IMG/VR virus record: IMGVR_UViG_3300046062_000024
Direction: 5' to 3' (one strand)
DNA from: a virus
Length of the DNA: 64,000 nucleotides
This document shows positions 297-17,373 of the stretch, piece after piece (within the stretch, counting starts at the first letter, position 1; every line of letters starts with the position of its first letter). The translations under genes were made by a program, and so were the position numbers. Below the pieces are notes generated by a model, which saw only the letters and a program-made list of their open reading frames with translations, did not search any database and had not been told where the DNA came from.

Positions 297-364
297 GCGT
301 GACCCGTAGTTGGCTGGCTGTACGCCTCGGTGCCCCTTTCGGGGCCGAAACCCGCCGCTGCGGG

Positions 365-796: not shown

Positions 797-841
797 GCAA
801 TCACGCCCCTCTCGGGGCCGTAGTGGCCTGTGGAGGCCACC

Positions 842-1576: not shown

Positions 1577-1662
1577 CGTGGAGTCACGCCCCTCTCGGGG
1601 CTGCCAGGAGCCGCTGTGTGCGCGTGTGTGCGGCTTCGTTGGTTGGCCGGCCCGTGGGCCGG

Positions 1663-2037
1663 CTACGCGCGCTCGCCGTCAGCGTCGGCCTCGACGCGGT
1701 CGAGAGCCACCGACAGAACGTCGGCTTCCATCACGACGTAGGCGAGACGCTTCAGTGTCTCCTCCGGGGTGTCGGCCTCGACGAGCGCCGGCCAGTCCGA
1801 GTACGTCGCCGGGTCGGTGTCCGCGTGTTCGACGATGGAGCCGTACAGTGCGCCGTCGTAGTAGTTCCGGGCGAACCAGTCGTGATAGTTGAGTTCCTCG
1901 GAACACATCTCCATGACGCCCTGCCGCCGGGAGTCGAAGTGGCCCGACTCGACCATCTCCTCGGCCTCATCGAGTAGCATCTCCACGAACGGTTCGACCG
2001 CCGCGTCGTACTCCGATTGCGTGATTGCGTCCGTCAC
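1663..2037 (-). CDS. Cassette gene, hypothetical protein (124 aa)
   Basis: GTG 6 nt after the repeat; acidic. Confidence 0.8.
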   Translation of the reverse strand: MTDAITQSEYDAAVEPFVEMLLDEAEEMVESGHFDSRRQGVMEMCSEELNYHDWFARNYYDGALYGSIVEHADTDPATYSDWPALVEADTPEETLKRLAYVVMEADVLSVALDRVEADADGERA

Positions 2038-2080
2038 AGTGTCTCACGCCCCTCTCGGGGCCGAATAGTATTGAGTCTGC

Positions 2081-2542
2081 CTACGACCGCGGCACGTCGT
2101 CCACCTCGACGGGGTACGTCGGGCCGTCCGGCAGGTCCTCGACGCGCCGGTTCTGAACGACGGTCTCGACCTCACCGTCCGGGTGGACAACGTGGTCGAA
2201 CGACACCGCTTCGGTGCCGAGACGCCGCGCTTTCCAGTGGTCGTGTGGGGGGACCGCCTCGGCGTCGCCGAACGTCCGGAAGTAGGCGTACTCGTCCACC
2301 GAGTTGACGGTCCCCCGCGTGCCGGTGTTCAGCGACCAGTATTCTTTCGCGTCGTAGAACGCCTGCCCGTTCCCGAGCGACGAGTAGCCGGGATGAACGT
2401 CGCCGCCGATGATGGCGCCCATGATGTAGCCGCCACAACCGGGACACTCCCGGGGCGCGTCGTCGGGACCGGGCTCGGGGTCGCTACACGAACACGGAGT
2501 GATACCGCCGTCGCCGTCGCCGTTGTTGGTTGCCTGTGGCAT
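2081..2542 (-). CDS. Cassette gene, Cys-containing hypothetical protein (153 aa)
   Basis: ATG 5 nt after the repeat; CSC..ECPGCGG. Confidence 0.75.
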   Translation of the reverse strand: MPQATNNGDGDGGITPCSCSDPEPGPDDAPRECPGCGGYIMGAIIGGDVHPGYSSLGNGQAFYDAKEYWSLNTGTRGTVNSVDEYAYFRTFGDAEAVPPHDHWKARRLGTEAVSFDHVVHPDGEVETVVQNRRVEDLPDGPTYPVEVDDVPRS

Positions 2543-2584
2543 CGTGGTCACGCCCCTCTCGGGGCCAATGTCCGGGGGTGGCGT

Positions 2585-2950
2585 TCACCCCTCGTGGCGG
2601 TACGTCTCCGCGATGGTGGCGCCGTGCTGGTCGATGGCGACGGTTCCGTCGAACCCGGTGACTCCGTAGCCGACGTTCTTGCTCCGGGTCCCGGTCGCGT
2701 CCTCGATGACCACCTCGTCATCCTCGACGGACAGTTCATCCCACTGGAAGGCGGTGTCGTCCAACGTCGCGCGGTCGAGGAAGATGTGGATGCCCCACAC
2801 CTCGGGCGGGTCGATGACCGACCACCACAACTCGTCGCCGTTGTCGTTCTCCGCGAGGACGGTGCCGCGCTCCTCGCCTTCGGGCGGTTCCTGCTCTTTG
2901 ACGTGGAACCCTATCTCCGTGAACGTCTCTTTGAACGTCTCGTGGTCCAT
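2585..2950 (-). CDS. Cassette gene, hypothetical protein (121 aa)
   Basis: ATG 4 nt after the repeat (MDHETFKETF); the longer track ORF reads through the repeat. Confidence 0.75.
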   Translation of the reverse strand: MDHETFKETFTEIGFHVKEQEPPEGEERGTVLAENDNGDELWWSVIDPPEVWGIHIFLDRATLDDTAFQWDELSVEDDEVVIEDATGTRSKNVGYGVTGFDGTVAIDQHGATIAETYRHEG

Positions 2951-2954
2951 CGAA

Positions 2955-3143
2955 TCACGCCCCTCTCGGGGCAGATACCGTGACATACCGCGACGAACCA
3001 TCCCGCTCGGGGCAGTAACCGTGACAGACCGCGGTATATCGCGGGGTATCGCCCCGTTTCGGGGAGATGCCGCGACATACCGCGACGAATCACCGGACAC
3101 CGACCCGTCTCGGGGAGGTACCGTGACATACCGCGACGAATCG
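2955..3143. repeat. Four degenerate ~41-52 bp tandem units, each containing the right half of the array element
   Basis: ACCGTGACATACCGCGACGAA identical at 2977-2997 and 3120-3140, near-identical at 3070-3089; TCGGGG begins each unit. Confidence 0.85.
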
Positions 3144-3719
3144 TCAGACCTCGGCGGCGTCGGCCGCCCACTGCATGAGGTCTTTCGCCTCGTTGTCGCG
3201 CTTGGCGGTGTTCTCCAGTTGCGCGAGCATCGCGTTGTACTCACGGGCGTCGAGGCCGCCGACCGGGCGGTTCGTGTGGTCGGCCTGCTCGGCTGTCCGT
3301 GTGGCCTCGGTTAGCACGTCCGTGTCCGTTCCGTCCCACCGTTTGAAGTTCTGGAGCGTCTCGACGACCGACAGGTTCGGCCGCTCGGTCACGTACCGGA
3401 CCGCTTGCTGTATCCAGTCGTGGACACCACCGTTGAACGCGACCGAGAGGTCGGCGGTGTCGGCCAGGAGGTCGAACCCGTCGAGTGCGGGGTTTGCCCG
3501 GAACTCGAACGAGTGGAACAGGTCCTCCACGGTCGTCCAGTGTTCGGACAGCACGTAGCCTTCGAGGTTGACGTAGCCCTCGGGGAACTCCTTGCGAGCG
3601 CTCACGTCGACCGTCAGCGCCAGGGTGTTCTCGACGGCGTAGTCCGCACGGCCGTCCTGCCCCCTGTCGCGGTGGGTCGCTTCTGCTTCGACCGTTCCGT
3701 TGACACGTATCGTTATCAC
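3144..3719 (-). CDS. Cassette gene, hypothetical protein (191 aa)
   Basis: GTG 6 nt after the repeat. Confidence 0.75.
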   Translation of the reverse strand: MITIRVNGTVEAEATHRDRGQDGRADYAVENTLALTVDVSARKEFPEGYVNLEGYVLSEHWTTVEDLFHSFEFRANPALDGFDLLADTADLSVAFNGGVHDWIQQAVRYVTERPNLSVVETLQNFKRWDGTDTDVLTEATRTAEQADHTNRPVGGLDAREYNAMLAQLENTAKRDNEAKDLMQWAADAAEV

Positions 3720-3761
3720 GGACAATCACGCCCCTCTCGGGGCGGCGACCGCTTACGGCGG

Positions 3762-4301
3762 TCAGTCGAGGATGCCGGCGAGTTCGCCGAGGCGGCGGAG
3801 GTCCTCGGACATATCCTCGCGGAGATGCGCTCCGTCGCGCTCGGTGGTGTGCGTGGGGAAGGCGTAGCCGTTCCAGTCGTCGCGGAGCCCGCGGACGTAG
3901 CCGTTACAGAACGCCTCGGCGCCGTCCGGCCACTCGTCGTCGTGGCTCTCGTAGGTGTCTCGGTCGCCGACCTCGTGTATCTCGATGTCCACGTTCCCGG
4001 TGAAATTCATCAGGTGAACGCCGCCGGATTTGACGTACACCCGGATGATGTCGCGGTCGCGGTCCGCCCGGGCGATGGTCGGGACGCTGTTCATCGAGCG
4101 GACGAGGAGTTCCGCCAGCGCCTCGGTCCGTGAGAGGTCAACTGGGACGGCGTGGAACACTTGGCGCTCGTCGCACTCCGTGCAGGTCCCCGACAGGCGA
4201 CGGCCAGTAACGGACACCTTCGGGTCTCCTGCCCCACACTCCGGGCACTGGTAGACGAGTCGCTCCCACGCTTCCGTCTCGGGTAGCTCCTGTTGTGGCA
4301 C
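3762..4301 (-). CDS. Cassette gene, zinc-ribbon protein (179 aa)
   Basis: GTG 5 nt after the repeat; CPECG...CTECD. Confidence 0.8.
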   Translation of the reverse strand: MPQQELPETEAWERLVYQCPECGAGDPKVSVTGRRLSGTCTECDERQVFHAVPVDLSRTEALAELLVRSMNSVPTIARADRDRDIIRVYVKSGGVHLMNFTGNVDIEIHEVGDRDTYESHDDEWPDGAEAFCNGYVRGLRDDWNGYAFPTHTTERDGAHLREDMSEDLRRLGELAGILD

Positions 4302-4349
4302 GGGAATCACGCCCCTCTCGGGGCCGAACCGGGGCGGGCGCCCCGGTCG

Positions 4350-4778
4350 TCAGTTGATGGGTTCGGCCCACGCCGCGATGTCCGCCGGAACGACCGACCC
4401 GGGGTTTTCGTAGAAACCGCCGTTCCGCATGACCCACCCCTGCATCCACACGTAGGCGAGGGCACGCGAGGCGGCGAGCGACTCCACCTCCAGCATTGCG
4501 ACCGACGAGGCGCCGGACACCATCTCTCCGGGCTCGTCGGGCTGGAGAACACAGTCGCCGTTGTCGTAGTCGCCCATCGACGGCTGGACGCTGTACGTCC
4601 CGTCGTCGGCCTGCATGACGCGGGCCGCTGTTGCCGTCCGGGGGTGGACGAACGCCTCGTGGTCCTCGTCGATGTGTCGGGCGTCGCGGCTGGCGATTTT
4701 GTCCTCGTCCCAATGCTCGACGCTGTAGAGCAGGTCCTCGTCGTCCGGGACCTGCTTGAAACTCGTAGCCATATCCAT
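4350..4778 (-). CDS. Cassette gene, hypothetical protein (142 aa)
   Basis: ATG 6 nt after the repeat. Confidence 0.8.
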   Translation of the reverse strand: MDMATSFKQVPDDEDLLYSVEHWDEDKIASRDARHIDEDHEAFVHPRTATAARVMQADDGTYSVQPSMGDYDNGDCVLQPDEPGEMVSGASSVAMLEVESLAASRALAYVWMQGWVMRNGGFYENPGSVVPADIAAWAEPIN

Positions 4779-4838
4779 CGGGCGTCACGCCCCTCTCGGG
4801 GCCGGGACCGCTTACGGCGGTCAGTCGAGGATGTCGTG

Positions 4839-4940
4839 TCAACAGTCCGGTAGCACTTCGATGTGTTCGTCACACACGGCTATCTCTGTACGCCCATCCC
4901 GCGTGACGGCAGGCGTGTCACAGAACGCACAATACGTCAT
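4839..4940 (-). CDS. Small Cys/His peptide (33 aa), ATGA-coupled to the upstream cassette gene
   Basis: MTYCAFCDTP..AVCDEH; 4-nt ATGA overlap with 4937..5329; followed in frame by HDILD* remnant. Confidence 0.5.
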   Translation of the reverse strand: MTYCAFCDTPAVTRDGRTEIAVCDEHIEVLPDC

Positions 4941-5329
4941 GTGACACCTCCGTCGCCGGGGCGCCGGATGGTGATGTCCGCAAGCAGCCAGTACGCCTCG
5001 TACCGCGAGAAGTGGCGCTCGGGGTGGTTCGGCGTGCCGGTCGCGCACACGTAGTCCGGCCCCACCTCGACATCCACGGCGACGTTCCACGATTCACCGT
5101 AGGTCATGTCGGTGTAGTCCACGTCGGAGACGCGGTGCCACTCGTCCGGCCCGGTTTCGACGGTGACGTACTCGGGCGTCCAGCGGTACCTGACGGAATC
5201 CACGGTGTGTCGGAGCGTGCGGTCGTCCAGCAGGTCGAGGTCGCTCGCGTGAACCGGGTGGAACGCATGCGGCTCGCTGGCGAACTCGCGGAGTTGCGCC
5301 GGGTCTGGATAGCGTGTTTCCTGTGGCAT
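4937..5329 (-). CDS. Cassette gene, hypothetical protein (130 aa)
   Basis: ATG 5 nt after the repeat (MPQETRY). Confidence 0.8.
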   Translation of the reverse strand: MPQETRYPDPAQLREFASEPHAFHPVHASDLDLLDDRTLRHTVDSVRYRWTPEYVTVETGPDEWHRVSDVDYTDMTYGESWNVAVDVEVGPDYVCATGTPNHPERHFSRYEAYWLLADITIRRPGDGGVT

Positions 5330-5372
5330 CGGCTTCACGCCCCTCTCGGGGCCGACAGCGGGCGTGTGCCCG

Positions 5373-6134
5373 CTACTCGTCGTCGGCCGCCTCGTCCGGC
5401 GGTTGGACGCTCCACCCGTCGGGGAGGAGACAGACGGCGAGGGTGGCGACCTCGTAGGATTTGAGGTTCGCCTGTATCTCGCCGGGGAGGTCGAGGTCGT
5501 CGTTCTCGACCAGCATCCAGTACAGGTCGCTCACGTCGTCTTTGAACAGCGACGTGAACCCCGTGTCGCGGGCGAGACACACCATCGGGCCGTAGCCCGT
5601 GTCGGGTTCCAGGTCAACCACCTCGCGGTTCGTGATGGACCCGATGGTCGGCCCGGCCTCGCGTTTGCGCTCGGCGCGCTCCGCTTGCGTGCGCGGCATC
5701 CGGTAGCCAGCGTTCTTCCGGTGGTTCTGGATGGCGCCGCAGGCGTTACACACCTGTTGGCGCTCGCCCGGGAGGGTGGCGACCGTCTGTTTGAGTCGGT
5801 CGTACCCGCAGCGGGCGCACTCGCCTTCGACTATCTCGGTGTACGAGCCCTGCGTGCCCTCGACGGGGCCGGACCGCATGTTGGACTCCAACAGCACCGG
5901 GAGGTCCTCGCCGGTGTCCATCCGGGCGATGCGGGGGTCGTCGCCGCCCGAGTCCTCGGGGAGCCGGGAGCGGACGCCGGGGCGGTCACACGGGTGGCCG
6001 TCCACGTCCGTCGTCTCCTGGCCGAGATAGTCCGGGCCGACGGTGCCGGATACGTCGAGGTTGTAGCCGCTCGGTGCGCCGCGTTCGTTGGCCCCCATCC
6101 GCTTGAGGGCACTGTCAGGCTCCTCGCCTGTCAT
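5373..6134 (-). CDS. Cassette gene, zinc-ribbon protein (253 aa)
   Basis: ATG 5 nt after the repeat; CARCG...CNACG. Confidence 0.8.
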   Translation of the reverse strand: MTGEEPDSALKRMGANERGAPSGYNLDVSGTVGPDYLGQETTDVDGHPCDRPGVRSRLPEDSGGDDPRIARMDTGEDLPVLLESNMRSGPVEGTQGSYTEIVEGECARCGYDRLKQTVATLPGERQQVCNACGAIQNHRKNAGYRMPRTQAERAERKREAGPTIGSITNREVVDLEPDTGYGPMVCLARDTGFTSLFKDDVSDLYWMLVENDDLDLPGEIQANLKSYEVATLAVCLLPDGWSVQPPDEAADDE

Positions 6135-6177
6135 CGCGGTCACGCCCCTCTCGGGGCACTGGTGTGGGTGGTGGGGG

Positions 6178-6474
6178 CTACAGGTCCGCGGGTGGAAAGC
6201 GCATCACCTCGACGGTGGCGAGTAATTCGTCGTCGCCCACCTCGATGTTCGGGTCGAACCGGCCGGAGCGGAGACACACGAACGCCCACTCGGCGCGCTC
6301 CGGTCTGTCCTCGACGTGGACCCAGAAGCCGAGACTGGTCACGTCCGAAAGCACCACGTCGGTCTGGTGTCCCATCACCCCGGCTTTCCACTCGCCGGAG
6401 ACGCGGTCGATGTAATCCATGTTGCGGAACGCCTGTTCCATCAATTCTCGCTGTCGTTCGGTCGGGTGTGGCAC
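6178..6474 (-). CDS. Cassette gene, hypothetical protein (98 aa)
   Basis: GTG 5 nt after the repeat (MPHPTERQ). Confidence 0.75.
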   Translation of the reverse strand: MPHPTERQRELMEQAFRNMDYIDRVSGEWKAGVMGHQTDVVLSDVTSLGFWVHVEDRPERAEWAFVCLRSGRFDPNIEVGDDELLATVEVMRFPPADL

Positions 6475-6524
6475 GGGAATCACGCCCCTCTCGGGGCCGG
6501 GAGCCGGCGGTCGCCCGCCGGTGG

Positions 6525-7469
6525 TTAGCGGAACACGCAGTACCCGATGTGGTCGTCGTCGCACGTGTGGAACACGGCGCCGTCGATGTGGTCGTCGTCG
6601 TGGGCCGCGTTCAACGCCGGGTGGTCGTCGTCGCCTTCTTCGATGAGGCCTTCGTCCTGTAACTCGAACGGGTCGATGGACCGCTGGTAGCGCAGTTCAT
6701 CGCTCCCGTAGAGACAGGACTCGTAATCGACCCACTCGCAGCGTTGACACCGGAACTCTAACTCGTGGGGGAGCCAGCCGCCCATCGCGCTGGTGTACGC
6801 CCGCGGGCCGGTGTAGCCGCCGCGAACGTCCGCGCCCTGATGGACTTGGACGAACCCGTACCCGGCGTAGGGACCGCCGAGGACGACGCCCTGAAGCACC
6901 TGCGAGAGTGAGTGACACTCCCCGTTGTAGGTGTTGAAGGTGAACCCCGCCTCGGTGCCCTGGATGTCGTTCTGGACCGCGAGAACGTCCGTGATGAACC
7001 CGTCGGGGACACCCCACTCGCGGAGGTCGAACTCCGTGAGCGCGTTGTCGAACAACAGGTCGCGGAACGCCTCGCTGGACGAGAGCCACGGCTCGCGCTC
7101 CTGGCTGTCGGTGTGGCCGAAGGCGTAGAGTGCGGCTTCCAGCGCGACCGCCGGCCGGTCGCGGCCGAAGGCCCGCTCCATCCAGTGGTAGACGTTGTGG
7201 GTAACGTAGCCGTTCCCCACGTCCCACGCCGGGCGTTCCCACGGGGGATTCTCCTGGTTTTCCTCCCAGTGCCGACCGTAGGCACTGCCGGAATCCAAGA
7301 GGTGCCTGCCCGTGTTCTCGGTCAGTTGGGACCGAATCACGTCCACGGCGTCGTCCGTGGCCATCGGGATAGGCTTCTCGCCGGGGGCGTTGTACGCCGC
7401 CTCGGCGAACGCCCGGACGAGTCGCTGGAGTTCGTCGGTACTGCCGTCTGTGGTCTGGTTGCCTGACAT
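6525..7469 (-). CDS. Cassette gene, conserved-looking viral hypothetical protein (314 aa)
   Basis: ATG 5 nt after the repeat; motifs TGRHLLDSGSAYGRHW, NTYNGE, HQGADVRGGY that I recall from uncharacterised phage proteins (unverified); C-terminal CQRC. Confidence 0.8.
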   Translation of the reverse strand: MSGNQTTDGSTDELQRLVRAFAEAAYNAPGEKPIPMATDDAVDVIRSQLTENTGRHLLDSGSAYGRHWEENQENPPWERPAWDVGNGYVTHNVYHWMERAFGRDRPAVALEAALYAFGHTDSQEREPWLSSSEAFRDLLFDNALTEFDLREWGVPDGFITDVLAVQNDIQGTEAGFTFNTYNGECHSLSQVLQGVVLGGPYAGYGFVQVHQGADVRGGYTGPRAYTSAMGGWLPHELEFRCQRCEWVDYESCLYGSDELRYQRSIDPFELQDEGLIEEGDDDHPALNAAHDDDHIDGAVFHTCDDDHIGYCVFR

Positions 7470-7521
7470 GGCAGTCACGCCCCTCTCGGGGCTGCTACCC
7501 GCCGATGAGGCGGGTGGTGTG

Positions 7522-7935
7522 CTACTCGGATAACACCATCTCGGGGACGGCCTCGTCGGGGAGTGCCGCCTCGAACTCGGCCGCCGCCGCGTTCACCTCG
7601 TCGATGAGCCTGACGACGAACCGAGGGTAGTATTCGACGGCTCGGCGGAGCAGGTCATCGTCGGCTTCCGGCGCCGGGACGCCGCTGCCCCGGCTGTTCG
7701 GGTGGTTTTTCGACACGAACAGCGCCCCGCTCTGACGGACGGTGTAGTAGCACGACCGGCCGGGTTTGGCGACCTTCACCGTGATGTCCCCGACGCCGGC
7801 CCCGCCGTAAGAGCGGGGTTTCGTGACGCCGGTGAGCATCTCGGCTTCGGGACGGTCGCGGAGCCACTCGCGGAGCGCCTCGTCGCTGTCCTCGACGCGC
7901 TCGACGGCTTCTCGGAGTTGTGGTATCTCCTCCAT
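7522..7935 (-). CDS. Cassette gene, hypothetical protein (137 aa)
   Basis: ATG 7 nt after a variant repeat. Confidence 0.8.
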   Translation of the reverse strand: MEEIPQLREAVERVEDSDEALREWLRDRPEAEMLTGVTKPRSYGGAGVGDITVKVAKPGRSCYYTVRQSGALFVSKNHPNSRGSGVPAPEADDDLLRRAVEYYPRFVVRLIDEVNAAAAEFEAALPDEAVPEMVLSE

Positions 7936-7991
7936 AGCGGTATCATGCCCCTCTCGGGACGAAACCGGGGAGTTGCCCCCCACCGACCGGG

Positions 7992-8255
7992 TCAGGTCGG
8001 CGTGACCAGCGGTTCAAGTTCTCGCGTTGCCCGCTCGACGCCGTGCGCCTCGGCGTACTGATAGCACCCGGGGTGAGCCTCCCCGTCGGGATACTCCTCA
8101 CGACGCCACAAGTCGATGGTTTGTGTCTCGTCGGCGTACCCGCCGCAGAGCGGACACGTCACGCTGTGGGCGTCTATCCACCGCTCGTTCGGCGAGACGC
8201 CAGCCGCCAGCGGGATGCCGTCAACGGTCGGCCGGTCGTTGTCGTTGTCCTCCAT
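7992..8255 (-). CDS. Cassette gene, zinc-finger protein (87 aa)
   Basis: ATG 5 nt after the repeat; CPLCG...HPGC. Confidence 0.75.
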   Translation of the reverse strand: MEDNDNDRPTVDGIPLAAGVSPNERWIDAHSVTCPLCGGYADETQTIDLWRREEYPDGEAHPGCYQYAEAHGVERATRELEPLVTPT

Positions 8256-8313
8256 AGCGGTCACGCCCCTCTCGGGGCCGAAGGCCGGAGCGTCGCCGGC
8301 GGGGTGGGTGGCT

Positions 8314-8607
8314 CTATAGCCACTCGTGGTCGGGGTGGGCGAGGAGCCACCCGGCGGCGATGCCTTCCGACTTGGCTGCCTCCGACATGACCGAGGGGGC
8401 CACGTCGGTCTGACGGACCGGGTATCCCTCGTGGAGTACCTCGCCCGCGTCGTGGTTCACCACGAGGTAGGTGTAGGTCCGGTGGTCGCTCACCCGCGCC
8501 TCGTTCTTGATACACCGCACGTCGAGGGGGCTGAAGTCCTCGGGGTCGTGCAGGGTGGTTTGCGATGCCTCCACGGCGTCGTCGTAGGTGCGCGTGTCGC
8601 GTCCCAT
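8314..8607 (-). CDS. Cassette gene, hypothetical protein (97 aa)
   Basis: ATG 6 nt after the repeat. Confidence 0.75.
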   Translation of the reverse strand: MGRDTRTYDDAVEASQTTLHDPEDFSPLDVRCIKNEARVSDHRTYTYLVVNHDAGEVLHEGYPVRQTDVAPSVMSEAAKSEGIAAGWLLAHPDHEWL

Positions 8608-8653
8608 CGTGGGTCACGCCCCTCTCGGGGCCGAAGGCCGGGGCGGTCCCGGG

Positions 8654-8797
8654 TTATTCCAGGTCGTGGACGGCGACGGGTTCGTCGTCGCTCGTCCGGT
8701 AGACCGCTATCTCGCTATGCTCCTCGCTGACGGAGACTACCAGGTCGCCGTCGATAAAGACGTTCAGGTACTCGCCGCGGTGGTCTGCCTCTATCAT
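8654..8797 (-). CDS. Cassette gene, small acidic protein (47 aa)
   Basis: ATG 6 nt after the repeat; MIEADHRGEYLNVFIDGDLVVSV...DLE; below the ORF-track cutoff. Confidence 0.7.
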   Translation of the reverse strand: MIEADHRGEYLNVFIDGDLVVSVSEEHSEIAVYRTSDDEPVAVHDLE

Positions 8798-8842
8798 CGG
8801 TGGTCACGCCCCTCTCGGGGCAAATACCGGGTGGGTTGTGGG

Positions 8843-9244
8843 TTATTCCCGGGGCGGCTTCGGGCCGATTTCGTCAATCAGGTCGGGGCGGTACCGCTCG
8901 GTTTTCTCGTACAGTACCCGCCGGAAGTGGACTGGCCCCGCGCCGATGCTCACACCGGCGGCCCACAGGTAGGCCGGACCGAAGGTGTCCAGCAGGAGCC
9001 TGACGTTGTTCCCGTCGGCGTGGAAAAACGCCTCGGCGACGTTGCCGTCCCACAGGTTGCCGGCGAAGTCGCCGCCGCGCTCGCGGACCCGCTCGGGGTC
9101 GTCGTGCTTGCGGACGAGTTCCTTGACGCTGTGGCGGTCCACGTCCGGGTGGTCGGACGGCTCGGCCAGCATGACGGTGGCGAACTCGGGCGATGCGCCG
9201 GCGACGAGTAGCCGTTCGGCGTCCGAATAGGAGTCGGGGTTCAT
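8843..9244 (-). CDS. Cassette gene, hypothetical protein (133 aa)
   Basis: ATG 6 nt after the repeat. Confidence 0.8.
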   Translation of the reverse strand: MNPDSYSDAERLLVAGASPEFATVMLAEPSDHPDVDRHSVKELVRKHDDPERVRERGGDFAGNLWDGNVAEAFFHADGNNVRLLLDTFGPAYLWAAGVSIGAGPVHFRRVLYEKTERYRPDLIDEIGPKPPRE

Positions 9245-9287
9245 CGGTGGTCACGCCCCTCTCGGGGCGACGGTGTGGGGCTGTCGG

Positions 9288-9497
9288 TCAGCCCTGTTGT
9301 TTGTTGAGTTGGGCCTTCAGTTCGGACCACAGGGACACGTCGCCGTCCCCGGTTCCGAACTCGTCGGCCTTGACCTGTTCTTCCAGCAGCCGCCCGACTC
9401 GTTCGGCGTCCATCTCGGTCGGGACGAACAGCATCGCTTCCGGGTCGTCGGGGACTCTCAGTATGTCCGTCGAGGCGTTCGGGTTGTCCGATTCCAT
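9288..9497 (-). CDS. Cassette gene, hypothetical protein (69 aa)
   Basis: ATG 6 nt after the repeat. Confidence 0.75.
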   Translation of the reverse strand: MESDNPNASTDILRVPDDPEAMLFVPTEMDAERVGRLLEEQVKADEFGTGDGDVSLWSELKAQLNKQQG

Positions 9498-9542
9498 CGG
9501 TGGTCACGCCCCTCTCGGGGCCGAACGAGGCGGGCCGGGGCG

Positions 9543-10019
9543 TTAGCCCCACTCCTCGCTGTGTAGTTGTTGCTCGCAGCGGAGGCAGGTGACGCTCTCA
9601 CCGCCCGATATGTAGTGGTGGGCGCGGTACGTGTAGACGCCGCGCTCGCCGCCACACTCGGGACACTCCTCGGGGACGCCCGAGAGGTCGGCCTCGAAAA
9701 GTGGGAACGCCACCGTGTAGCGACCCACGTGGTCGTCGCTCCGTTTCGCGCCGTGCTGTGGGTCGCCGCGGGTGACTGAGAAGTCCCGTACCTCGCGCGT
9801 CTCGACCGTCCACTCGCTGTCGTGGACGTGTTTCAGGACGTGGAGGTCGCCGGTCCCCGGCGTGCCCGGGATGTCGTGGTTTGCGACCGTCTCCAGCGCC
9901 GCCTCGATGCGGCTGGTCGAGGGACCGCGGCGTTGGCGGCCTCGGTCCCGTCGCGCTCGCTGGTGGTCGGTTCGGTCGAGTCGTGCCCGTCGTCGGGCTT
10001 CGGGGTAGGGGTCAGTCAT
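9543..10019 (-). CDS. Cassette gene, Arg-rich N-terminus and C-terminal zinc ribbon (158 aa)
   Basis: ATG 7 nt after a variant repeat; CPECG...CLRCE; the N-terminus may be frameshifted. Confidence 0.7.
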   Translation of the reverse strand: MTDPYPEARRRARLDRTDHQRARRDRGRQRRGPSTSRIEAALETVANHDIPGTPGTGDLHVLKHVHDSEWTVETREVRDFSVTRGDPQHGAKRSDDHVGRYTVAFPLFEADLSGVPEECPECGGERGVYTYRAHHYISGGESVTCLRCEQQLHSEEWG

Positions 10020-10063
10020 ACCGGGGTCTCGCCCCTCTCGGGGCCGAACGCGGGATGGGTGGG

Positions 10064-10300
10064 TTAGTAGTACCAGCCCATCTTGTCGCATATCTCGCGG
10101 GCGAGTTCCACTTCGCTCTCGTTGCGGGCGTCCACGTACTCGGTGCCGGCCAGCGCCACGATGCCCGGTTTGAGTACCTGCCGGAACACCTCGCGCTGGA
10201 GATAGTTGTGTTCGCTGTTGATGCCGGCTTGGAACTCGGCTATCTCGATACCGCTGTTCACGCTGTCGCCGATTGCGTCGGCGAGGTCGGCTGCGTCCAT
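10064..10300 (-). CDS. Cassette gene, hypothetical protein (78 aa)
   Basis: ATG 6 nt after the repeat. Confidence 0.75.
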   Translation of the reverse strand: MDAADLADAIGDSVNSGIEIAEFQAGINSEHNYLQREVFRQVLKPGIVALAGTEYVDARNESEVELAREICDKMGWYY

Positions 10301-10348
10301 CGGTGGTCACGCCCCTCTCGGGGCCGGCGGGGGCAGTCCCCGCGCTGG

Positions 10349-10591
10349 TTACTCGTGGACGACGACCCGGAGGCCGGACTCGACCATCTCGACGGCGGGG
10401 TCGGATGTATCCATCTCGTCCGGTACGTCGTACTCCTGGTCGGTCACGCGGACGGCCTCGACCTCGACGGCGAACGGGTCGCCCGGCCACTCGACTCCAT
10501 TGACGACGGCTTCGGCCGCCGTTTTGTGGTCGTCGGCCTCGGCCGCGCCGAGGACTTCGCCGCTTTCGACGTAGATGATGTACGTATCCAT
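10349..10591 (-). CDS. Cassette gene, hypothetical protein (80 aa)
   Basis: ATG 5 nt after a variant repeat. Confidence 0.75.
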   Translation of the reverse strand: MDTYIIYVESGEVLGAAEADDHKTAAEAVVNGVEWPGDPFAVEVEAVRVTDQEYDVPDEMDTSDPAVEMVESGLRVVVHE

Positions 10592-10636
10592 CGGTGCCAC
10601 GCCCCTCTCGGGGCCAAACCGGCTTGAAGCCGGTGG

Positions 10637-11167
10637 TTAGTCGTCCAGTCCCGCCACTACGTCGTCACGCGGTATCCACGACGTGGCCCCCGCTTCACCG
10701 TAGGGGGCGAAGTCCTCGGCCAGCATGATGCGGACCTCGGTGTCGTCGTCGTCCAACAGGTACGCCGCGGCGTGGCGACCCATATCGTTCGGGTCGCGTA
10801 CCTCCACGACCGGGTGGGGATGGCCGTGGGGGTAGTCATGCACCAGCAGGGTCGTGTTCAGGCGGTCCCCGCAGACATGGCAGGACGCGCCGGGGTAATC
10901 CCACTCGTCGTTCGCGGCGACGACCCCAACACCGAAGCCGTCGGGGTCGTGCCCGCCCGGCGGGAACTCCGTCAATGGGTACATCTCGCCGTCGCCCGCA
11001 GACTCGACGGACACATCCGGCGCGCACGATAGGCAGTACGCCGCGCCGTCGTAGATGTAGCCGGCCGCGCCGCCGGGCCACACGCCGCCAGGGAGTTCCC
11101 GGGCAGTCGGGGCGAGGTCGTCGTCGTCGGTCACGGACTCCGCACTCAGGTTTCCTATGACGCCCAT
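10637..11167 (-). CDS. Cassette gene, Cys-containing hypothetical protein (176 aa)
   Basis: ATG 7 nt after the repeat; CLSC...CHVCG. Confidence 0.8.
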   Translation of the reverse strand: MGVIGNLSAESVTDDDDLAPTARELPGGVWPGGAAGYIYDGAAYCLSCAPDVSVESAGDGEMYPLTEFPPGGHDPDGFGVGVVAANDEWDYPGASCHVCGDRLNTTLLVHDYPHGHPHPVVEVRDPNDMGRHAAAYLLDDDDTEVRIMLAEDFAPYGEAGATSWIPRDDVVAGLDD

Positions 11168-11209
11168 AGTCGAGTCACGCCCCTCTCGGGGCAGGACGCC
11201 GAGGGACCG

Positions 11210-11428
11210 TTATACACGGTCCGGGTCGCGGAGCAACACGTTCCGCTTCAGCGTGTGTCCGCACTCGGCGCATTTGATGTCGCCTTCTACCCACCCGCAG
11301 GGGTCCCGGCGTGTCGCGTGCGTCTCGGTCGGTGGGGGACACTCCCCACAGACGGGACACTCCGGCGGCACGGGCGGGCCGGGTGGGCGGTTCTCCCGTC
11401 TCGCGCCGCGTCGTCGTTCGCTGTGCAT
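11210..11428 (-). CDS. Cassette gene, Arg-rich N-terminus plus CPxCG zinc finger (72 aa)
   Basis: ATG 8 nt after the repeat; CPVCG...CAECG. Confidence 0.65.
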   Translation of the reverse strand: MHSERRRGARRENRPPGPPVPPECPVCGECPPPTETHATRRDPCGWVEGDIKCAECGHTLKRNVLLRDPDRV

Positions 11429-11490
11429 CGTCGGAGTCACGCCCCTCTCGGGGCTGACGGGAAGGCTGGATTGGGGCGCCGCCCCGGTGG

Positions 11491-11877
11491 TTACTGTCCG
11501 TACAACTCGAAGTCGAGGGTGTCGGCCTCGTATGGGGCGACGGCGGCCATGTAGCCGTGCGCGAAGTCCCGCGCCCGCGTCCGGTCGCCGGCGGGCGGCG
11601 CGGCGGCCTCGGGGCTGTCTTCCGCCAGCGGGCGGACGACCCCCATCAGGTCCGTCATGCCGTGTTCGGGGTACGCCAGGATGAACCAGTTGTCGTCGTG
11701 GGTTCGCCCGAGCAGGACTTGGTGGCCGTTGGCGAACAGGTAGGCCTCCTCGCCGTAGGCTTCGCCCTCGGCGGGGTCGAACCGGGTCCAGCCCGGTGGG
11801 AGTCGCTCGTCCGGCATACCCAGGGCCTCCTCGTTGTCGATGCCGTCGCGTAGGTCGGTTCCGTCGTACCCTGTCAT
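11491..11877 (-). CDS. Cassette gene, hypothetical protein (128 aa)
   Basis: ATG 7 nt after the repeat (MTGYDGTDL). Confidence 0.8.
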   Translation of the reverse strand: MTGYDGTDLRDGIDNEEALGMPDERLPPGWTRFDPAEGEAYGEEAYLFANGHQVLLGRTHDDNWFILAYPEHGMTDLMGVVRPLAEDSPEAAAPPAGDRTRARDFAHGYMAAVAPYEADTLDFELYGQ

Positions 11878-11923
11878 GGGTCGGTCACGCCCCTCTCGGG
11901 GCGATAAATCGGCGGCGGGGCGC

Positions 11924-12310
11924 CTATTCGTCGGACACCGGCGGGTACACCAGGGTGTTCGTCGCGCGCGGCGGCGTGACGAACTCGTCGTTCGACGGCT
12001 CAACCACGACGACGAGAACCGCGTCGTCGGGACTGATTACCTCGTTCTCCCCGTTGTCGGTGCCGAGCCACGAGGGGTGGTCGTCCATTATCTCGACGCC
12101 GCCGTCGTCGCAGATTTGGTACATCCGCGGTACCGCCTCGTAGGCGGGGTAGCCGTCCGCTTGGCCGATACGGTTAACCACGGTACCGTCCACGTCCACG
12201 GACCGGGAGACTGTCCCGACTATCAGGAGGAGCGGACCCCTACAGTCGCCGCGCTTACGGCCCGCTCGGTCCATCAAGTCGGCCAGTCCGGTTACTGTCG
12301 TGTCCGTCAT
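11924..12310 (-). CDS. Cassette gene, hypothetical protein (128 aa)
   Basis: ATG 3 nt after a variant repeat. Confidence 0.75.
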   Translation of the reverse strand: MTDTTVTGLADLMDRAGRKRGDCRGPLLLIVGTVSRSVDVDGTVVNRIGQADGYPAYEAVPRMYQICDDGGVEIMDDHPSWLGTDNGENEVISPDDAVLVVVVEPSNDEFVTPPRATNTLVYPPVSDE

Positions 12311-12352
12311 GGGTCACGTCCCCTCTCGGGGCAGGGCGACCGCTTACGGCGG

Positions 12353-12829
12353 TCAGTCGATTGGCGAGAGGGGCCGCAGGCTTTCCTCGCCGGCGTAGGG
12401 GCCGACATAGACGACTCGGTGGCCGTACTCGCCCGCGCCGGTGGTGAGTCGCTGCATGGCCGCGACCATCGGGTGGTCGTCGCGGAGGCCGTCGATGGCG
12501 TACAGCCGCAGGTCGTTGTTCGGCCGCCATTGGACGGCGGCGTGCAGCGGCTCGCACTCGACCCACTCGTCGGTGTGCGGCGGCTCGATGCAGACCCGCG
12601 TTGTCTTGTTACAGCGGGAGGTCGAGGGCGAAACCTCCCACCGGCGGCCGTCGGCCGTCTCGGCGTACACGCCGGAGACGTGGCGGTCGTCGGCGTCGGG
12701 GTCGTAGCGGTTCCGGCCGGCGGCGAGTTCGCGCTCCTCGCTGGTCCAGTCGCCGTCGTCGCGCGCGGGAACGAGCGCGCCCTCGTTCGTGGACTGGACG
12801 CCGGTCGCGTCTGCTGTTGCTCGGGTCAC
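12353..12829 (-). CDS. Cassette gene, hypothetical protein (158 aa)
   Basis: GTG 6 nt after the repeat. Confidence 0.75.
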   Translation of the reverse strand: MTRATADATGVQSTNEGALVPARDDGDWTSEERELAAGRNRYDPDADDRHVSGVYAETADGRRWEVSPSTSRCNKTTRVCIEPPHTDEWVECEPLHAAVQWRPNNDLRLYAIDGLRDDHPMVAAMQRLTTGAGEYGHRVVYVGPYAGEESLRPLSPID

Positions 12830-12873
12830 AGTTAGTCACGCCCCTCTCGGGGCCGGGCGACCGCTTACGGCGG

Positions 12874-13416
12874 TCAGTCGTCGTTCGTGGCGTCGTCCGG
12901 CAGGTCGCGCTCGGACACGTTCTGGACCTCGCTCGGTTCCACGCCGTAGCCGGAGGCGTGCGACCAGTATCCCTCAACGTCGCTCTCACCGACCTCGAAC
13001 GTCTCATGTCGGACGTTCCGATAGTGGGTGAGGTCGGCGACGTAGTAGGTCGCGCGGTCGAGGAACGGCGGGGCGGCGGGCAGGTGATGCTCGTCACCGA
13101 GGGACCGGAGTATGGCCTTCACGTTGTCGGTGAAGTCCGTCCACGGGTCGCTCGGGTCCGTCCACACGTCCGCGGGGCGGAACCTGTACCGTTCGACGAG
13201 GTGCTTCGGTTCCGACCACGCGGCCGGGGGCGTCACCTCCACGACGCGCCAGTCGGTTCCCGTCCACTTGATGTATTCGCCCCCGTGTTCGATGGGGTTC
13301 ACGTCCCAGTAGTTCACCCACCGCTCCGGCGGGTCGAACGCCGGACTGTCGGTGGGCGCGTGCTTGGGCCGCTCCTGATACCGGGTTTCGAGGGTTGTGT
13401 CGAGTTGGCCGGTCAT
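12874..13416 (-). CDS. Cassette gene, hypothetical protein (180 aa)
   Basis: ATG 7 nt after the repeat. Confidence 0.8.
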   Translation of the reverse strand: MTGQLDTTLETRYQERPKHAPTDSPAFDPPERWVNYWDVNPIEHGGEYIKWTGTDWRVVEVTPPAAWSEPKHLVERYRFRPADVWTDPSDPWTDFTDNVKAILRSLGDEHHLPAAPPFLDRATYYVADLTHYRNVRHETFEVGESDVEGYWSHASGYGVEPSEVQNVSERDLPDDATNDD

Positions 13417-13466
13417 CGGTCGGTCACGCCCCTCTCGGGGCCGGCGCGGGCGCTTCGCCCGCGCGG

Positions 13467-13793
13467 TCAGTCGTCGTCGCGGAGGCCGAGTTCGCTGAGG
13501 CGCTCCCGCAACGCCTGATGTTGGTCTACGGTCATGCCGGCGTCGAACTGACTCATGTCGTCGTTCGAGAGGTACACCACCCAGGACAGGATGGATTGGA
13601 CGATTGGGTCGTTCGGGCCGGCCACGTCGCTCCAGTAGTCGGCGGTGGCGATGAGGAGCCGGCGGTTCGTCGGCGGGTGGCGTCGGGCCATAGCCGCAGC
13701 CACGTCCGCGAACTTCTCGCGGACCTCGGCCACGTCGTCGCCGGCGAGTTGCCCTATCGGTTCCGCGAGGTCGATGGTGGGGTTGGCGCTCAT
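13467..13793 (-). CDS. Cassette gene, hypothetical protein (108 aa)
   Basis: ATG 8 nt after the repeat (MSANPT). Confidence 0.75.
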   Translation of the reverse strand: MSANPTIDLAEPIGQLAGDDVAEVREKFADVAAAMARRHPPTNRRLLIATADYWSDVAGPNDPIVQSILSWVVYLSNDDMSQFDAGMTVDQHQALRERLSELGLRDDD

Positions 13794-13842
13794 GGCCGGA
13801 GTCACGCCCCTCTCGGGGCCGGAGCCGGCAGCCGGCGGCTGG

Positions 13843-14016
13843 CTACCGGGTCGTGTTGCCGTGCGGCGGGTTGCGGTGCATGACCGGCTCCGGGTTTCCG
13901 GGGGCCAGCCGCGCCGCCTGTAGGTCCTCGCACCGCGGGCACAGTTCGGGGCCGGGTGGTCGGGGGTCGTTACACCGTCTGCACGCGAGGGAGTCCTCGT
14001 AGTCGTTGGCGCTCAT
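13843..14016 (-). CDS. Cassette gene, small zinc-finger protein (57 aa)
   Basis: ATG 8 nt after the repeat (MSANDY); CRRC...CPRC. Confidence 0.65.
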   Translation of the reverse strand: MSANDYEDSLACRRCNDPRPPGPELCPRCEDLQAARLAPGNPEPVMHRNPPHGNTTR

Positions 14017-14065
14017 GGCCGGAGTCACGCCCCTCTCGGGGCCGAGACGCGGGAGTCGAGACGGG

Positions 14066-14458
14066 TTAGACCGTGACGGTCATGCCGTCCGTGAACTCCC
14101 GCTCGCCGCTCGGCGTCTCCAGGTACCACTCGTAATCCTCCTGGTACACCTCGTACCCGTCGGGCAGGTAGCGGTTGATGCGGTCCTTTGTCGTTTGGGT
14201 CCGGTAGCCGTGGCTGTCAAGCCGGCGCGTGCGTCCCTCCGTAACGACCACCGGCGACTGGTGGTAGAAGTGGACGAGTGCGCCGTCGTACCGGACTTTC
14301 ACGTCGCGGTACGCGCCTTTGTCGGTCGTGCGGGCACACGTACAGCCCTTAACCGCGGGGCCGTTGTTACCGGGCTGGTGGTAGCCGGACCGCTCTTGTA
14401 CGGTTCCCTCGTCGGTCGCAGTCCCGAAACTCGGGACGGGTAGACTGTCGGCGCTCAT
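14066..14458 (-). CDS. Cassette gene, phage-type hypothetical protein (130 aa)
   Basis: ATG 8 nt after the repeat (MSADSL); YHQSPVV..GYRTQTTKDRIN motif recalled from phage hypotheticals (unverified). Confidence 0.8.
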   Translation of the reverse strand: MSADSLPVPSFGTATDEGTVQERSGYHQPGNNGPAVKGCTCARTTDKGAYRDVKVRYDGALVHFYHQSPVVVTEGRTRRLDSHGYRTQTTKDRINRYLPDGYEVYQEDYEWYLETPSGEREFTDGMTVTV

Positions 14459-14508
14459 GGCCGGAGTCACGCCCCTCTCGGGGCCGGCGGGGGCGGCCCC
14501 CGCGCTGG

Positions 14509-14769
14509 TCAGGGCAGGTACTTCAGGGGGTCCTCGTCGGACTCCCGCATGACGCCCTTCATGTGTTCGGCTTCCAGTTCCTCGACGGACTTGAACCGCG
14601 ACACCGACACGTCGCCGGCTTTGTCGCCCCACTCGCAGGTGGGGCAGCCGTCGCCCGACTGGAACTTCTCCGCCGGGTCGTCCGGCTGGTCGTCCCACTC
14701 GGCCACGTCGTGTCGGAGCGCGTACAGCGAGTACGGTTCGCCGCACTTCGCGCAGGGTATGTCGTTCAT
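14509..14769 (-). CDS. First (promoter-proximal) cassette gene, zinc-finger protein (86 aa)
   Basis: ATG 7 nt after the repeat; CAKCGEP...GCPTC. Confidence 0.8.
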   Translation of the reverse strand: MNDIPCAKCGEPYSLYALRHDVAEWDDQPDDPAEKFQSGDGCPTCEWGDKAGDVSVSRFKSVEELEAEHMKGVMRESDEDPLKYLP

Positions 14770-15949
14770 CGGCGGGTCACGCCCCTCTCGGGGCCGAAAG
14801 CCGCGATGCGAGTGTGGGTGTGTTCGCTAGTTGCCCACGGCGGCCCTCTCGGGCCGGTGCGCGTGGCTATGGTGGCTCTTGTGTCCCCGTGCAGCGGGCG
14901 TCTGTATCCACGGTGCTGTTTACTCTCGGGTACGTCTATCTGGTGATGGCTGGTGCCTTCTATGGCCGGTGGCGGCGGCGGCTTGTCGCCGTCGTGCCTG
15001 CCGGGTCGGGCTATGCCGACCGAGGCCGCGGCCGTCATACGCGCGCTCGCGTCGGGTCGCGTGCCATAGCCGTGAGATTCCTCGCGCCCCGGCGCTATGC
15101 CGGGGTCGCGTGCCCTAATAGCCCCTTCCAGGGACTCCGAAAACCACTCGTCGGCTGGTAGGCCGTGCGGCCGAACTGACCGGCGACCGCGCCGGGTCCG
15201 GGGTACTCCCGCGCCCCACCGCGCCCGCGCCGCTCGCGGGTGCGTGTGTTGGTCGGACTCGCGGGGATACTACTGGCCCCCACCGCCCTGTCGGCTCGGG
15301 AGTCTCACCCTTAATCGGGGCGCGGGGCCGGGCCGCCGTATCCGGCGGGGCGTCGTATTGTCGTACCCTGACGCCTCGGGTCGCGGGGCCGTTCCCCGGG
15401 GAGTCTCCCGGTTATCAATTGAGTGGGTTTTGGTTTCCCGTACCCACCGGGAGACTCGCACGCCCGCCGTTCGGGGCCTTAGACCGCCCCCGTTGCAGGG
15501 GACAGGATTGGACCCGTCCGGCGACGCACACACCGACCGCGCGACTTCTCGCCCGCGGCCCCGTCGCCCGCACACCTATCCGCGGCCACCGCCGCGTGTG
15601 CTATGGGCCGGAGCGTCTCGCGTGGGTGGGTAATCACCCCGGGCGAGCGTAGCCGGTGCCATGACGCGCGGGGGGTCGCCCCCGCGCCGTATGCTATTTC
15701 CGGGTTTACAGTTAAGTCTCCCCGTCGCAACCGGGGGTAGGCGGTGGTGCCGGAACCGTAGGGGCCTCACACGCCCCATTCCCGCGGCCCTACGGGGCCA
15801 CGGAGGGGGGCGCTTGAACGGCCGCCGCCGTCCGACGCCACCGGCCAACCGCAGGCCGGCACCGCGCCGGGTGGGCCGTGCCGGGATACCCCCGCGCCGG
15901 GAACCCGCCCCACGTCAGGGGGGATACCCCCATGTTGGGCCGCGGGGAG

Positions 15950-15957
15950 TATAAAAG
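15950..15957 (+). promoter_or_regulatory. Archaeal TATA box (TATAAAAG)
   Basis: Best TATA consensus in a very GC-rich intergenic region; purine-rich GGGGAG directly upstream; predicted TSS about 15979-15980. Confidence 0.6.
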
Positions 15958-15978
15958 TTTCGGTTCGCAAATTCCGGC

Positions 15979-16170
15979 GGTTCACGCCCCTCAGACACCC
16001 GAAAACGGCGCTTTGCGTCGTGGAAACATGATTCCACGACACGGCCCGCGTGCGGGGCGGTATCGGCCGATTCTGGCGGATATAGCCGCGATAACTCGTG
16101 ATTCCATCATGGCATACCCCCGAACAGCACCGCGCCACGACGGACGACCTAGCCGGTTCAGGCCGCGTGT
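15979..16170 (+). ncRNA. Candidate structured small RNA or long leader with a 5' end antisense to the array element
   Basis: TCACGCCCCTC at 15982-15992, about 30 nt after the TATA box; perfect 9-bp hairpin GTCGTGGAA/TTCCACGAC at 16017-16040 and further short stems; 3' end unknown. Confidence 0.35.
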
Positions 16171-16275
16171 GCCCCGATGATAGATAAACCCGGACGGAAC
16201 AGGCCGCCACCGGCCGAATCAGGACACCCCCCGGCGGGGGGACTAAGGCCACGGAGGCCCACGCTATTATCCATC

Positions 16276-17157
16276 ATGGCCGTCGAGGACTCCGACGACA
16301 TCAACCGATTCGCACAAGCCGTGAGCGGGCGCGAAGTCACGAACGACGACACGCTCGACTCCTACATACGCTGGATTCAGCGGTATGAGGAGTGGCTCAC
16401 CGCCGAGTCCCCCACGGAAACCACCGTCAGAGAGTTCGACCGATACCTCGCAAGCAACGACGAGTTCCTCTGGAACATGGGGCATCCCCTGCGGAACGAC
16501 GAGGACCGCCCCGGCTACGCATACCGAACCCGGGTCAAGGCGCTATCAGCCGTCAAGCTCTGGATGCGGTTTCACTACAACGTCGAGATACCGACAGAGG
16601 TCCAGAACATGGCACTCGGCGAGGCGCCGGACTACGACCCCGACTGGCTCTCGGAGAGCGACTGTGAACGAATCATCACCACCGCCACCGACGCCTGCGA
16701 CAACGAGGAGTGCCGGGCGCTCCTCCGGCTGTCCTACGACGCCATCCTCCGAGCCGCCGAAGCCGCGAGCATCGAACGAGACGACATCTCGCTGGACCGC
16801 GGGACGATATACGTCAGAGCCAAGAAGGGGTCGATGAACGCCGAGATTGGCCTCGACGACACCACCGTCTCCCGGCTCCGAGAACACACCGCCGCCTTCC
16901 CGGGACGTGACCGGCTGTTCCGAAACGCATACGGCCGGGCCTGGAAACCGAACGCGCTCGCCCAGCACTTCCGACGATGCCACCACGAGGTCGGCATCCA
17001 CAGTTTCTCCCGACACAGCCCCATCATCCACCGGCTCAACGCCGGCGAACCCTTCGGCACAGTCATGCGGCGGGCGAGGCACTCGAACAGCACGACGACG
17101 ATGCGGTATGCCCGCCTCGTCGGGGCGGAGATACCGCCGTGGGTCGAGGACGGGTGA
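16276..17157 (+). CDS. Tyrosine recombinase/integrase (XerC-like, 293 aa)
   Basis: Catalytic set R (ILRAAEA), K (AKKG), H-x-x-x-R (IHSFSRH), H and Y (RHSNSTTTMRY); N-terminal core-binding-like domain. Confidence 0.9.
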   Translation: MAVEDSDDINRFAQAVSGREVTNDDTLDSYIRWIQRYEEWLTAESPTETTVREFDRYLASNDEFLWNMGHPLRNDEDRPGYAYRTRVKALSAVKLWMRFHYNVEIPTEVQNMALGEAPDYDPDWLSESDCERIITTATDACDNEECRALLRLSYDAILRAAEAASIERDDISLDRGTIYVRAKKGSMNAEIGLDDTTVSRLREHTAAFPGRDRLFRNAYGRAWKPNALAQHFRRCHHEVGIHSFSRHSPIIHRLNAGEPFGTVMRRARHSNSTTTMRYARLVGAEIPPWVEDG

Positions 17158-17373
17158 CTACTTGAACTCCTCCTCGACCAGCCGTTCGAGTTCGGCGCGG
17201 GACTCCTCGCCGTAGAGCGCGCGCTGCATCACGAGGACGCGACACGCCGGCGCCTTCGGTCCGCGGATACCGGCACAGAGGTCGTCCGATACGTCCATCG
17301 CCACCCTGACCGCGTCCGGGTGCGGTGGGCGTGGTGGCGTGAGGTCGTCGAGCATGGGAGTGGGGTCGGTCAC
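17158..17373 (-). CDS. Hypothetical protein (71 aa)
   Basis: ORF track; ATGA-type overlap with the upstream gene. Confidence 0.55.
   Translation of the reverse strand: MTDPTPMLDDLTPPRPPHPDAVRVAMDVSDDLCAGIRGPKAPACRVLVMQRALYGEESRAELERLVEEEFK

Follow-up and report, generated by a model that had tools for sequence, protein, structure and literature searches.

Trans-acting antisense sRNAs that carry a seed at the 5′ end are known in bacteria and haloarchaea. In the integron platform (intI, Pc, attI and attC), which also exists in archaea (PMC9668308), a divergent tyrosine recombinase lies beside a one-way array of promoterless single-gene cassettes, with a single promoter at the recombinase-proximal end and a cassette order that is reshuffled between relatives; attI shares only the core with attC, and an attC of 55-140 nt follows each gene. 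In the PeSL cassettes of T4-type phages (PMC2839356, PMC4122927), short stem-loop regulatory repeats, each with an early promoter, flank small accessory ORFs, and it is at these repeats that viral genes change their order, no dedicated integron integrase being involved. The intergenic repeats of classes I and II in halovirus HF2 are AT-rich promoters of 58 and 29 bp, some of them bidirectional (PMC8707807).

Here we analysed a stretch of 64,000 nt, referred to as the window (IMG/VR record IMGVR_UViG_3300046062_000024), which came from a halite metagenome and belongs to an uncultured haloarchaeal virus bearing an array of cassettes. The rest of the window contains virus-type genes, including those for a primase, a virion protein and a protease. 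The features of the locus are as follows.

248-14794, minus strand: cassette array, about 31 single-gene cassettes with an element 5-8 nt before each start codon
290-302, plus strand: inverted copy of the right half of the element (GAGAGGGGCGTGA on the plus strand), a true anti-element within the minus-strand array transcript
14777-14794, minus strand: first full element (GCCCCGAGAGGGGCGTGA), marking where the leader ends and the variable cassettes start
14795-15925, minus strand: predicted leader of about 1.1 kb, non-coding and structure-rich, from the promoter to the first cassette
15950-15962, minus strand: putative BRE (CGAAA, 15962-15958) and TATA (TTTTATA, 15956-15950), with a predicted leftward start near 15925
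15975-16005, minus strand: extended element-like site, made up of TTTTCGG, 6 nt (GTGTCT replacing CCCCGA), the 11-mer and ACCGCCG
15982-15992, minus strand: half-element, the right half and tail (GAGGGGCGTGA) of the array element without the left stem arm, co-oriented with the array
16017-16040, no strand assigned: palindrome with 9-bp arms and a 6-nt centre (ACATGA), preceded by GCTTTGC, with compensatory arm changes in five array lineages
16276-17157, plus strand: tyrosine recombinase divergent from the array, 293 aa, ATG at 16276, Pfam Phage_integrase (2.3e-16)

Comparison with described cassette systems

The locus resembles an integron in having a divergent tyrosine recombinase beside a one-way array of promoterless single-gene cassettes, one promoter at the recombinase-proximal end, a cassette order that differs between relatives, and an orphan site near the recombinase that shares one half of the repeat. 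As in attI, only the crossover-side core is shared, the right half and tail being identical and the left arm replaced. However, the recombinase is not an IntI, since it scored 39.1 bits against the integron integrase model TIGR02249 (cutoff 265) and 23 against PRK15417 (cutoff 435), and it is a core gene in related viruses without an array; its score against NCBIfam XerA was 71.5 bits (cutoff 220). The repeat is also different, being an 18-nt hairpin with a GNRA loop and an SD-like tail that stands before each start codon, whereas attC is longer and comes after each gene. Furthermore, the orphan site is not located downstream of the promoter at the junction with the first cassette; the promoter and a 1.1-kb structured leader intervene, so that insertions at the site would go unexpressed.

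The original prediction had suggested, as a DNA-level option, an attI-like half-site. This held good as far as a co-oriented copy of the right half of the element is concerned, but not for its place upstream of the promoter, which is unlike that of an integron attI. An identity as integron attI does not fit this position or the scores far below the IntI cutoffs, and none of the joints listed was a recombination joint at the site (see below).

With PeSL cassettes the locus shares short stem-loop regulatory repeats flanking small ORFs and the shuffling of viral genes at these repeats without a dedicated integron integrase. In contrast to PeSLs, the repeats have no promoter or TATA of their own, one promoter with a long leader apparently serving the array, and the host domain differs, the hosts here being archaea. 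Unlike the HF2 repeats, the element is a GC-rich hairpin with an SD-like tail and contains no promoter motifs. By these comparisons the system is partly integron-like and partly PeSL-like, and is a member of neither group, nor of the HF2-type repeats.

Recombinase and related lineages

A total of 57 relatives of the recombinase were found, and arrays of like architecture were present in four further lineages besides the window. Their recombinases and the coordinates of the leader are given below.

L022-25: recombinase 60% identical to that of the window; array present; leader in L022 at about 830-2330
L055: 51-52% identical; array present; leader at about 90-1240
L029/L030: 44% identical; array present; leader in L029 at 7938-9130
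L144: 44% identical; array present; leader at about 8400-9620

The recombinase occurred without an array in L027, L031, L145 and L143. No relatives of the recombinase were detected in IMG/VR, either with the single protein or with an alignment, and the region 14700-17200 had no DNA match among deposited phages and plasmids. No tRNA gene, as would fit an attP lying within a tRNA, was found in the window. It was also noticed that the Logan contigs of four relatives (L021, L026, L054 and L056) break off 100-200 nt upstream of where the recombinase starts; variable or repetitive DNA beyond that point in co-occurring strains would be expected to have this effect.

Cassettes bounded by a hairpin element

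The full element (GCCCCGAGAGGGGCGTGA) is 18 nt long and consists of a 5-bp stem, a GAGA loop and a GUGA tail. Its right half with the tail, GAGGGGCGTGA, was found 34 times in the window at no more than one mismatch, against 2.9 +/- 1.5 times in shuffles. The array copies (28 exact and 3 with one mismatch) are all on the minus strand, each 5-8 nt ahead of a short minus-strand ORF. According to the original prediction, an RNA begun at the 11-mer would be complementary to all 32 elements; this complementarity was confirmed for the 28 exact copies and, with one mismatch, for the other 3, but not for a tail-less variant at 332-345. No AT-run of at least 6 nt was present in any element, and in the 16 kb only two such runs were found (11904-11909 and 15950-15956). 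Searches for the exact 18-mer in IMG/VR and GTDB genomes gave only single chance matches.

About 15 cassette proteins are common to the arrays of the window (248-14794), L144 (300-8400) and L029 (1-7940), with 40-81% identity. These shared cassettes differ in order and agree in orientation, and despite the conserved leader in front of them, the cassettes that come first in the window and in L029 show no relation to each other. Single genes move as element-bounded units, and it is clear that the elements are where cassettes change places. In co-occurring variants, joints between contigs fall at the borders of elements (e.g. 11904 to 12859, 14488 to 14795, and 11462/11466 back to 8294); these joints are weak evidence, because their short sides measure only 21-23 nt. 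Rearrangements seen between the arrays include swaps of c2/c3 and c12/c14, a move of c6 and a reordering of c22-c27.

Two further observations were made within the array. First, a gene-less junction near its far end (290-302 on the plus strand and 332-345 in the window; about 230-310 in L144) is conserved nearly base for base; the L144 recombinase is only 44% identical to that of the window. This junction holds the inverted right-half element, which reads UCACGCCCCUCUC in the array transcript and is kept at the same place in L144. Second, the AT-run at 11904-11909 (TTTATC on the minus strand), the only other one inside the array, lies 26 nt before an ATG at 11877, and the cassette concerned (11877-11491) follows a gap of 457 nt. 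This run could be an internal promoter that yields a leaderless mRNA.

A probable leftward promoter at the head of the array

The sequence TATAAAAG was located at 15950-15957, where the minus strand reads CGAAA-C-TTTTATA (15962-15950). In the haloarchaeal promoter consensus, a BRE of CGAAA is followed by a TATA of TTWT and by WW near -10 (PMC4983044), and in halovirus HF2 the TATA ends at -26 with the BRE at -33 to -37 (PMC8707807). The minus strand conforms to this consensus: it has CGAAA, then a T-rich TATA some 26 nt ahead of the start that is predicted near 15925, and AA at 15936-15935 as the WW near -10. On the plus strand, GGGAG occupies the BRE position and there is no TTWT, so that the rightward consensus is absent. 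The T-rich half of the TATA faces the array strand in the window, L029, L144 and L055, that is, in at least four of the five lineages, L022 having several AT boxes; a canonical CGAAA BRE was seen in the window and L029 only.

This TATA is the only AT-run of at least 6 nt between 11910 and 16264, so that no other promoter is visible where the array begins. Since a structured leader begins about 25 nt to its left and runs into the first cassette, the TATA is, on consensus and conservation, most likely the leftward promoter of the array. A palindrome at the predicted start, GGGGGTATCCCCC, straddles the start site and was not counted as RNA structure.

A predicted leader, conserved and structured

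No credible ORF was found in the 1.1 kb to the left of the predicted start. Blocks of this leader are conserved in the four further lineages (L029/L030, L055, L144 and L022), the recombinases of which are only 44-60% identical to that of the window, and its length is 1.1-1.5 kb across all five array lineages. Near-invariant islands (e.g. GAGGAATCTCACGGC, ACAGCACCGTGGATAC and GGCGTCGGA) and covarying hairpins were recognised, and the conservation extends up to the first element. The consensus fold of the first 300 nt had a free energy of -43.3 kcal/mol on the minus strand vs -32.7 kcal/mol on the plus strand; one helix contains a G.U pair that does not vary and whose counterpart on the plus strand would be A.C. 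The z scores relative to shuffles were -3.97/-2.63 for the minus strand vs -2.29/-1.25 for the plus strand. No Rfam match with an E value up to 1 was obtained for 14000-17000, and a scan of IMG/VR for the leader motifs gave 86 chance matches, none of them halovirus-like. Such a leader is possibly a large viral RNA of a new kind, or else a 5′ leader of unusual length for a haloarchaeon.

A palindrome that travels with the putative array promoter

Upstream of the promoter, GTCGTGGAA-acatga-TTCCACGAC at 16017-16040 forms a perfect 9+6+9 inverted repeat. The left arms in the five array lineages are GTCGTGGAA, GGGATAGAA, GAGATAGAA, GAGTTACAA and GAGTTAAAA. Over these lineages 95.6% of the cells are paired and both sides have changed in 5 of the 9 pairs, a level that was reached by none of 500 shuffles. 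The palindrome is confined to array-bearing loci, and it may be either an RNA hairpin or a protein-binding DNA palindrome. The version in L029 is fully paired only as plus-strand RNA, by way of two G.U pairs. In the same lineage, the left arm of the degenerate palindrome (GAGTTAAAA-TAT) is repeated just before the recombinase start codon (9219-9233 and 9983-9996), where it has less the look of a hairpin than of a word repeated in a promoter or operator.

The five array lineages, when read on the minus strand, have in common the order palindrome, CAAAGC, a variable stretch, TATA and leader; in the window it reads palindrome, CAAAGC, TTTTCGG, half-element and promoter. In L055 the recombinase is set apart from this block by three ordinary genes of the minus strand that carry no elements, and the block stays with the promoter and leader, from which it follows that the block belongs to the array promoter and not to a recombinase leader. 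The palindrome travels with the array promoter rather than with the recombinase. The variant of a recombinase leader, given in the original prediction, is likewise weakened by these three genes, which lie on the opposite strand.

A function of the palindrome as a binding site for a regulator or for the recombinase is possible. The idea that it is a core site at which the recombinase recombines it with the elements was rejected as the working model, since the 6-nt centre ACATGA has nothing in common with the GAGA loop. The three intervening genes of L055 were also considered as cassettes inserted at the half-site, and this was rejected as they carry no elements. Between the palindrome block and the recombinase a conserved TAGATAA box was noticed in the window (16181-16191), L021 (48-58) and L055 (1466-1476). 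The minus strand carries its T-rich half, and the box is a candidate for the promoter of the recombinase or for a further leftward promoter.

The half-element upstream of the putative promoter

The 11-mer TCACGCCCCTC at 15982-15992 on the plus strand corresponds to GAGGGGCGTGA on the minus strand. Together with the TATA at 15950-15957 and the 9-bp inverted repeat at 16017-16040, it was found just as the original prediction had described. It has the orientation of every array element, all of which read GAGGGGCGTGA on the minus strand, and is therefore a further copy of the element, limited to the right half; complementarity to the elements would arise solely under plus-strand transcription. The similarity goes beyond the 11-mer: read on the minus strand, the half-element has TTTTCGG on its upstream side and ACCGCCG on its downstream side, where the first full element has TTTCGG and CCCGCCG. 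Midway through the GAGA loop this similarity ends, GTGTCT standing at the position of the left arm instead of CCCCGA, and because this arm is lost, the hairpin cannot form. Flank identity was highest to the first array element (17/34 vs a mean of 9.9), a value that was not significant after multiple testing.

The half-element lies 25 nt upstream of the BRE/TATA, roughly at -58 to -68 of the predicted leftward start. Between the array and the recombinase (14795-16275, 1.48 kb), 0.0014-0.0021 exact 11-mers would be expected by chance on either strand, in agreement with the original estimate of well under 1 percent, and no exact copy was present in the remaining 47.7 kb of the window. Among the joints listed from contigs of three metagenome DNA runs, none was a recombination joint at 15982-15993, and one metagenome contig crosses 14458-17500 unbroken. 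The homologous positions in the array lineages contain the following.

Window: GAGGGGCGTGA, 11/11
L055: GAGGGACGTGG, matching the L055 element in 9/11
L144: GAAGGGCTATGA, about 9/11 with one gap
L029: no motif, with elements identical to those of the window
L022: no motif

The presence at the same position, in three deeply diverged lineages, of a motif that resembles the elements of the respective lineage hints at a function. Rather than the beginning of a master antisense RNA, the best reading of the 11-mer is a half-copy (paralogue) of the element at the cassette boundaries, co-oriented with the array and hairpin-less.

Interpretation and alternative explanations

The explanation that we favour, with moderate confidence, is that the locus contains a leftward array promoter and its leader, the half-element being a DNA-level copy of the element within the upstream block of the array module. 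The promoter would fire leftward, and the start near 15925 would open the structured leader of about 1.1 kb that leads into the first cassette. As a DNA-level paralogue, the half-element would form an imperfect direct repeat with the first full element, the two bracketing the promoter-leader unit. The process behind the reshuffling of the cassettes, be it recombination between elements or gene conversion, probably also produced the half-element and keeps it element-like, and the half-element may serve at most as an accessory boundary or protein-binding site rather than as a trans-acting RNA seed.

Among the alternatives, the one that survives best is that the half-element is a functionless relic in promoter-upstream DNA, either a decayed cassette junction or a gene-conversion patch from the array. 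The destroyed left stem arm would fit such an origin, as would the loss of the motif in 2 of the 5 lineages with retention of the array, its being perfect in the window only, flanks that match the nearest element best, and the 32 donor copies nearby. Nevertheless, the motif persists in three lineages with recombinases only 44-52% identical to that of the window; neutral DNA would be saturated at such a distance, so that this persistence counts against a relic unless the copy is refreshed by conversion. We regard a relic as unlikely.

In the original prediction, the TATA is used rightward, alone or in both directions, and gives a small RNA or a recombinase 5′ UTR whose start (UCACGCCCCUC) pairs with the SD-like tail of the elements and represses or remodels all cassettes. 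The likeness to trans-acting antisense sRNAs lies in an 11-nt perfect complement to a motif in the ribosome-binding region of many genes, placed where a rightward transcript would begin: by the spacing rule from haloviral promoters the TATA fits a start at 15980-15984, and some of these promoters are bidirectional (PMC8707807). In addition, a related motif occurs at the same place in L055 and L144, and the L029 palindrome pairs fully only on the plus strand. The 11-bp duplex was calculated at -22.3 kcal/mol, slightly favourable on balance after opening of the element hairpin (+11.7) and of the seed (+5.1); by this model the pairing is possible, not compelling.

Unlike the known sRNAs, the candidate has no oriented promoter, terminator, seed conservation or co-variation, and its targets are locked in a stable hairpin, the opening of which costs about 11.7 kcal/mol. 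Both the BRE and the T-rich half of the TATA belong to the opposite strand. The region 15980-16275 showed no excess folding (z of -0.88 and -0.76 vs shuffles), the minimum free energy fold pairs the seed internally with GGGGCG at 16052-16057, and no T-run terminator follows the hairpins on the plus strand. A transcript going rightward in L055 would enter an unrelated gene in antisense instead of reaching the recombinase. Co-variation of the seed with the element was not found in the four other array lineages. L144 has the element of the window but TCATAGCCCTTC as seed, and L055 has CCACGTCCCTC against the element TCACGGCCCTC, which leaves about 7 bp of antisense pairing in L144 and 9 bp with an internal mismatch in L055. 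L029, with an identical element, and L022 have kept the array and lost the seed, a combination that the original prediction had itself named as refuting it. With the consensus on the minus strand, the seed lost in these two lineages and no excess fold, a TATA-driven plus-strand master antisense RNA is unsupported, and we consider it improbable.

Lower in probability we place a signal in minus-strand RNA, in which a transcript arriving from further right would meet the hairpin of the palindrome and UUUU as a terminator or insulator before the array promoter. Its source could be the TAGATAA box at 16181-16191 or, in L055, the upstream genes, and the half-element would be an element-like 5′ or read-through sequence. 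This arrangement is suggested by the succession of hairpin, CAAAGC and then (G)TTTTCGG or the T-run TTTTGCGG in the window, L055 and L144, by the three co-directional genes that end just upstream of the block in L055, and by the TAGATAA box retained in the window, L021 and L055, the T-rich half of which faces the minus strand. However, a run of four T is a weak terminator in archaea, and it lies 10-20 nt from the hairpin; L029 and L022 are without the T-run, and the window has no upstream minus-strand gene.

There is also a slim chance that the array promoter is truly bidirectional, such that a short rightward RNA, with its element complement and the palindrome as a protein-binding hairpin, couples the recombinase or the translation of about 31 cassettes to array transcription. 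If true, this version would amount to an RNA-guided or RNA-gated cassette system in archaeal viruses. A weak divergent transcript may exist. Finally, a chance match, for which only the GC-rich background speaks, has hardly any probability in view of the expectation given above, the element-like flanks and the related motifs at homologous positions.

Conclusions

It would have been remarkable if a single RNA gated 32 ribosome-binding sites, but the evidence leads in another direction. For the 15-kb cassette array of this uncultured haloarchaeal virus, the analysis gives the probable promoter together with its direction and start. A conserved upstream block, consisting of the palindrome and an optional half-element, travels with the array in five deeply diverged lineages, and a long, conserved and structured leader precedes the array. 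The block and the leader are thereby concrete sites at which array expression and cassette exchange may be sought.
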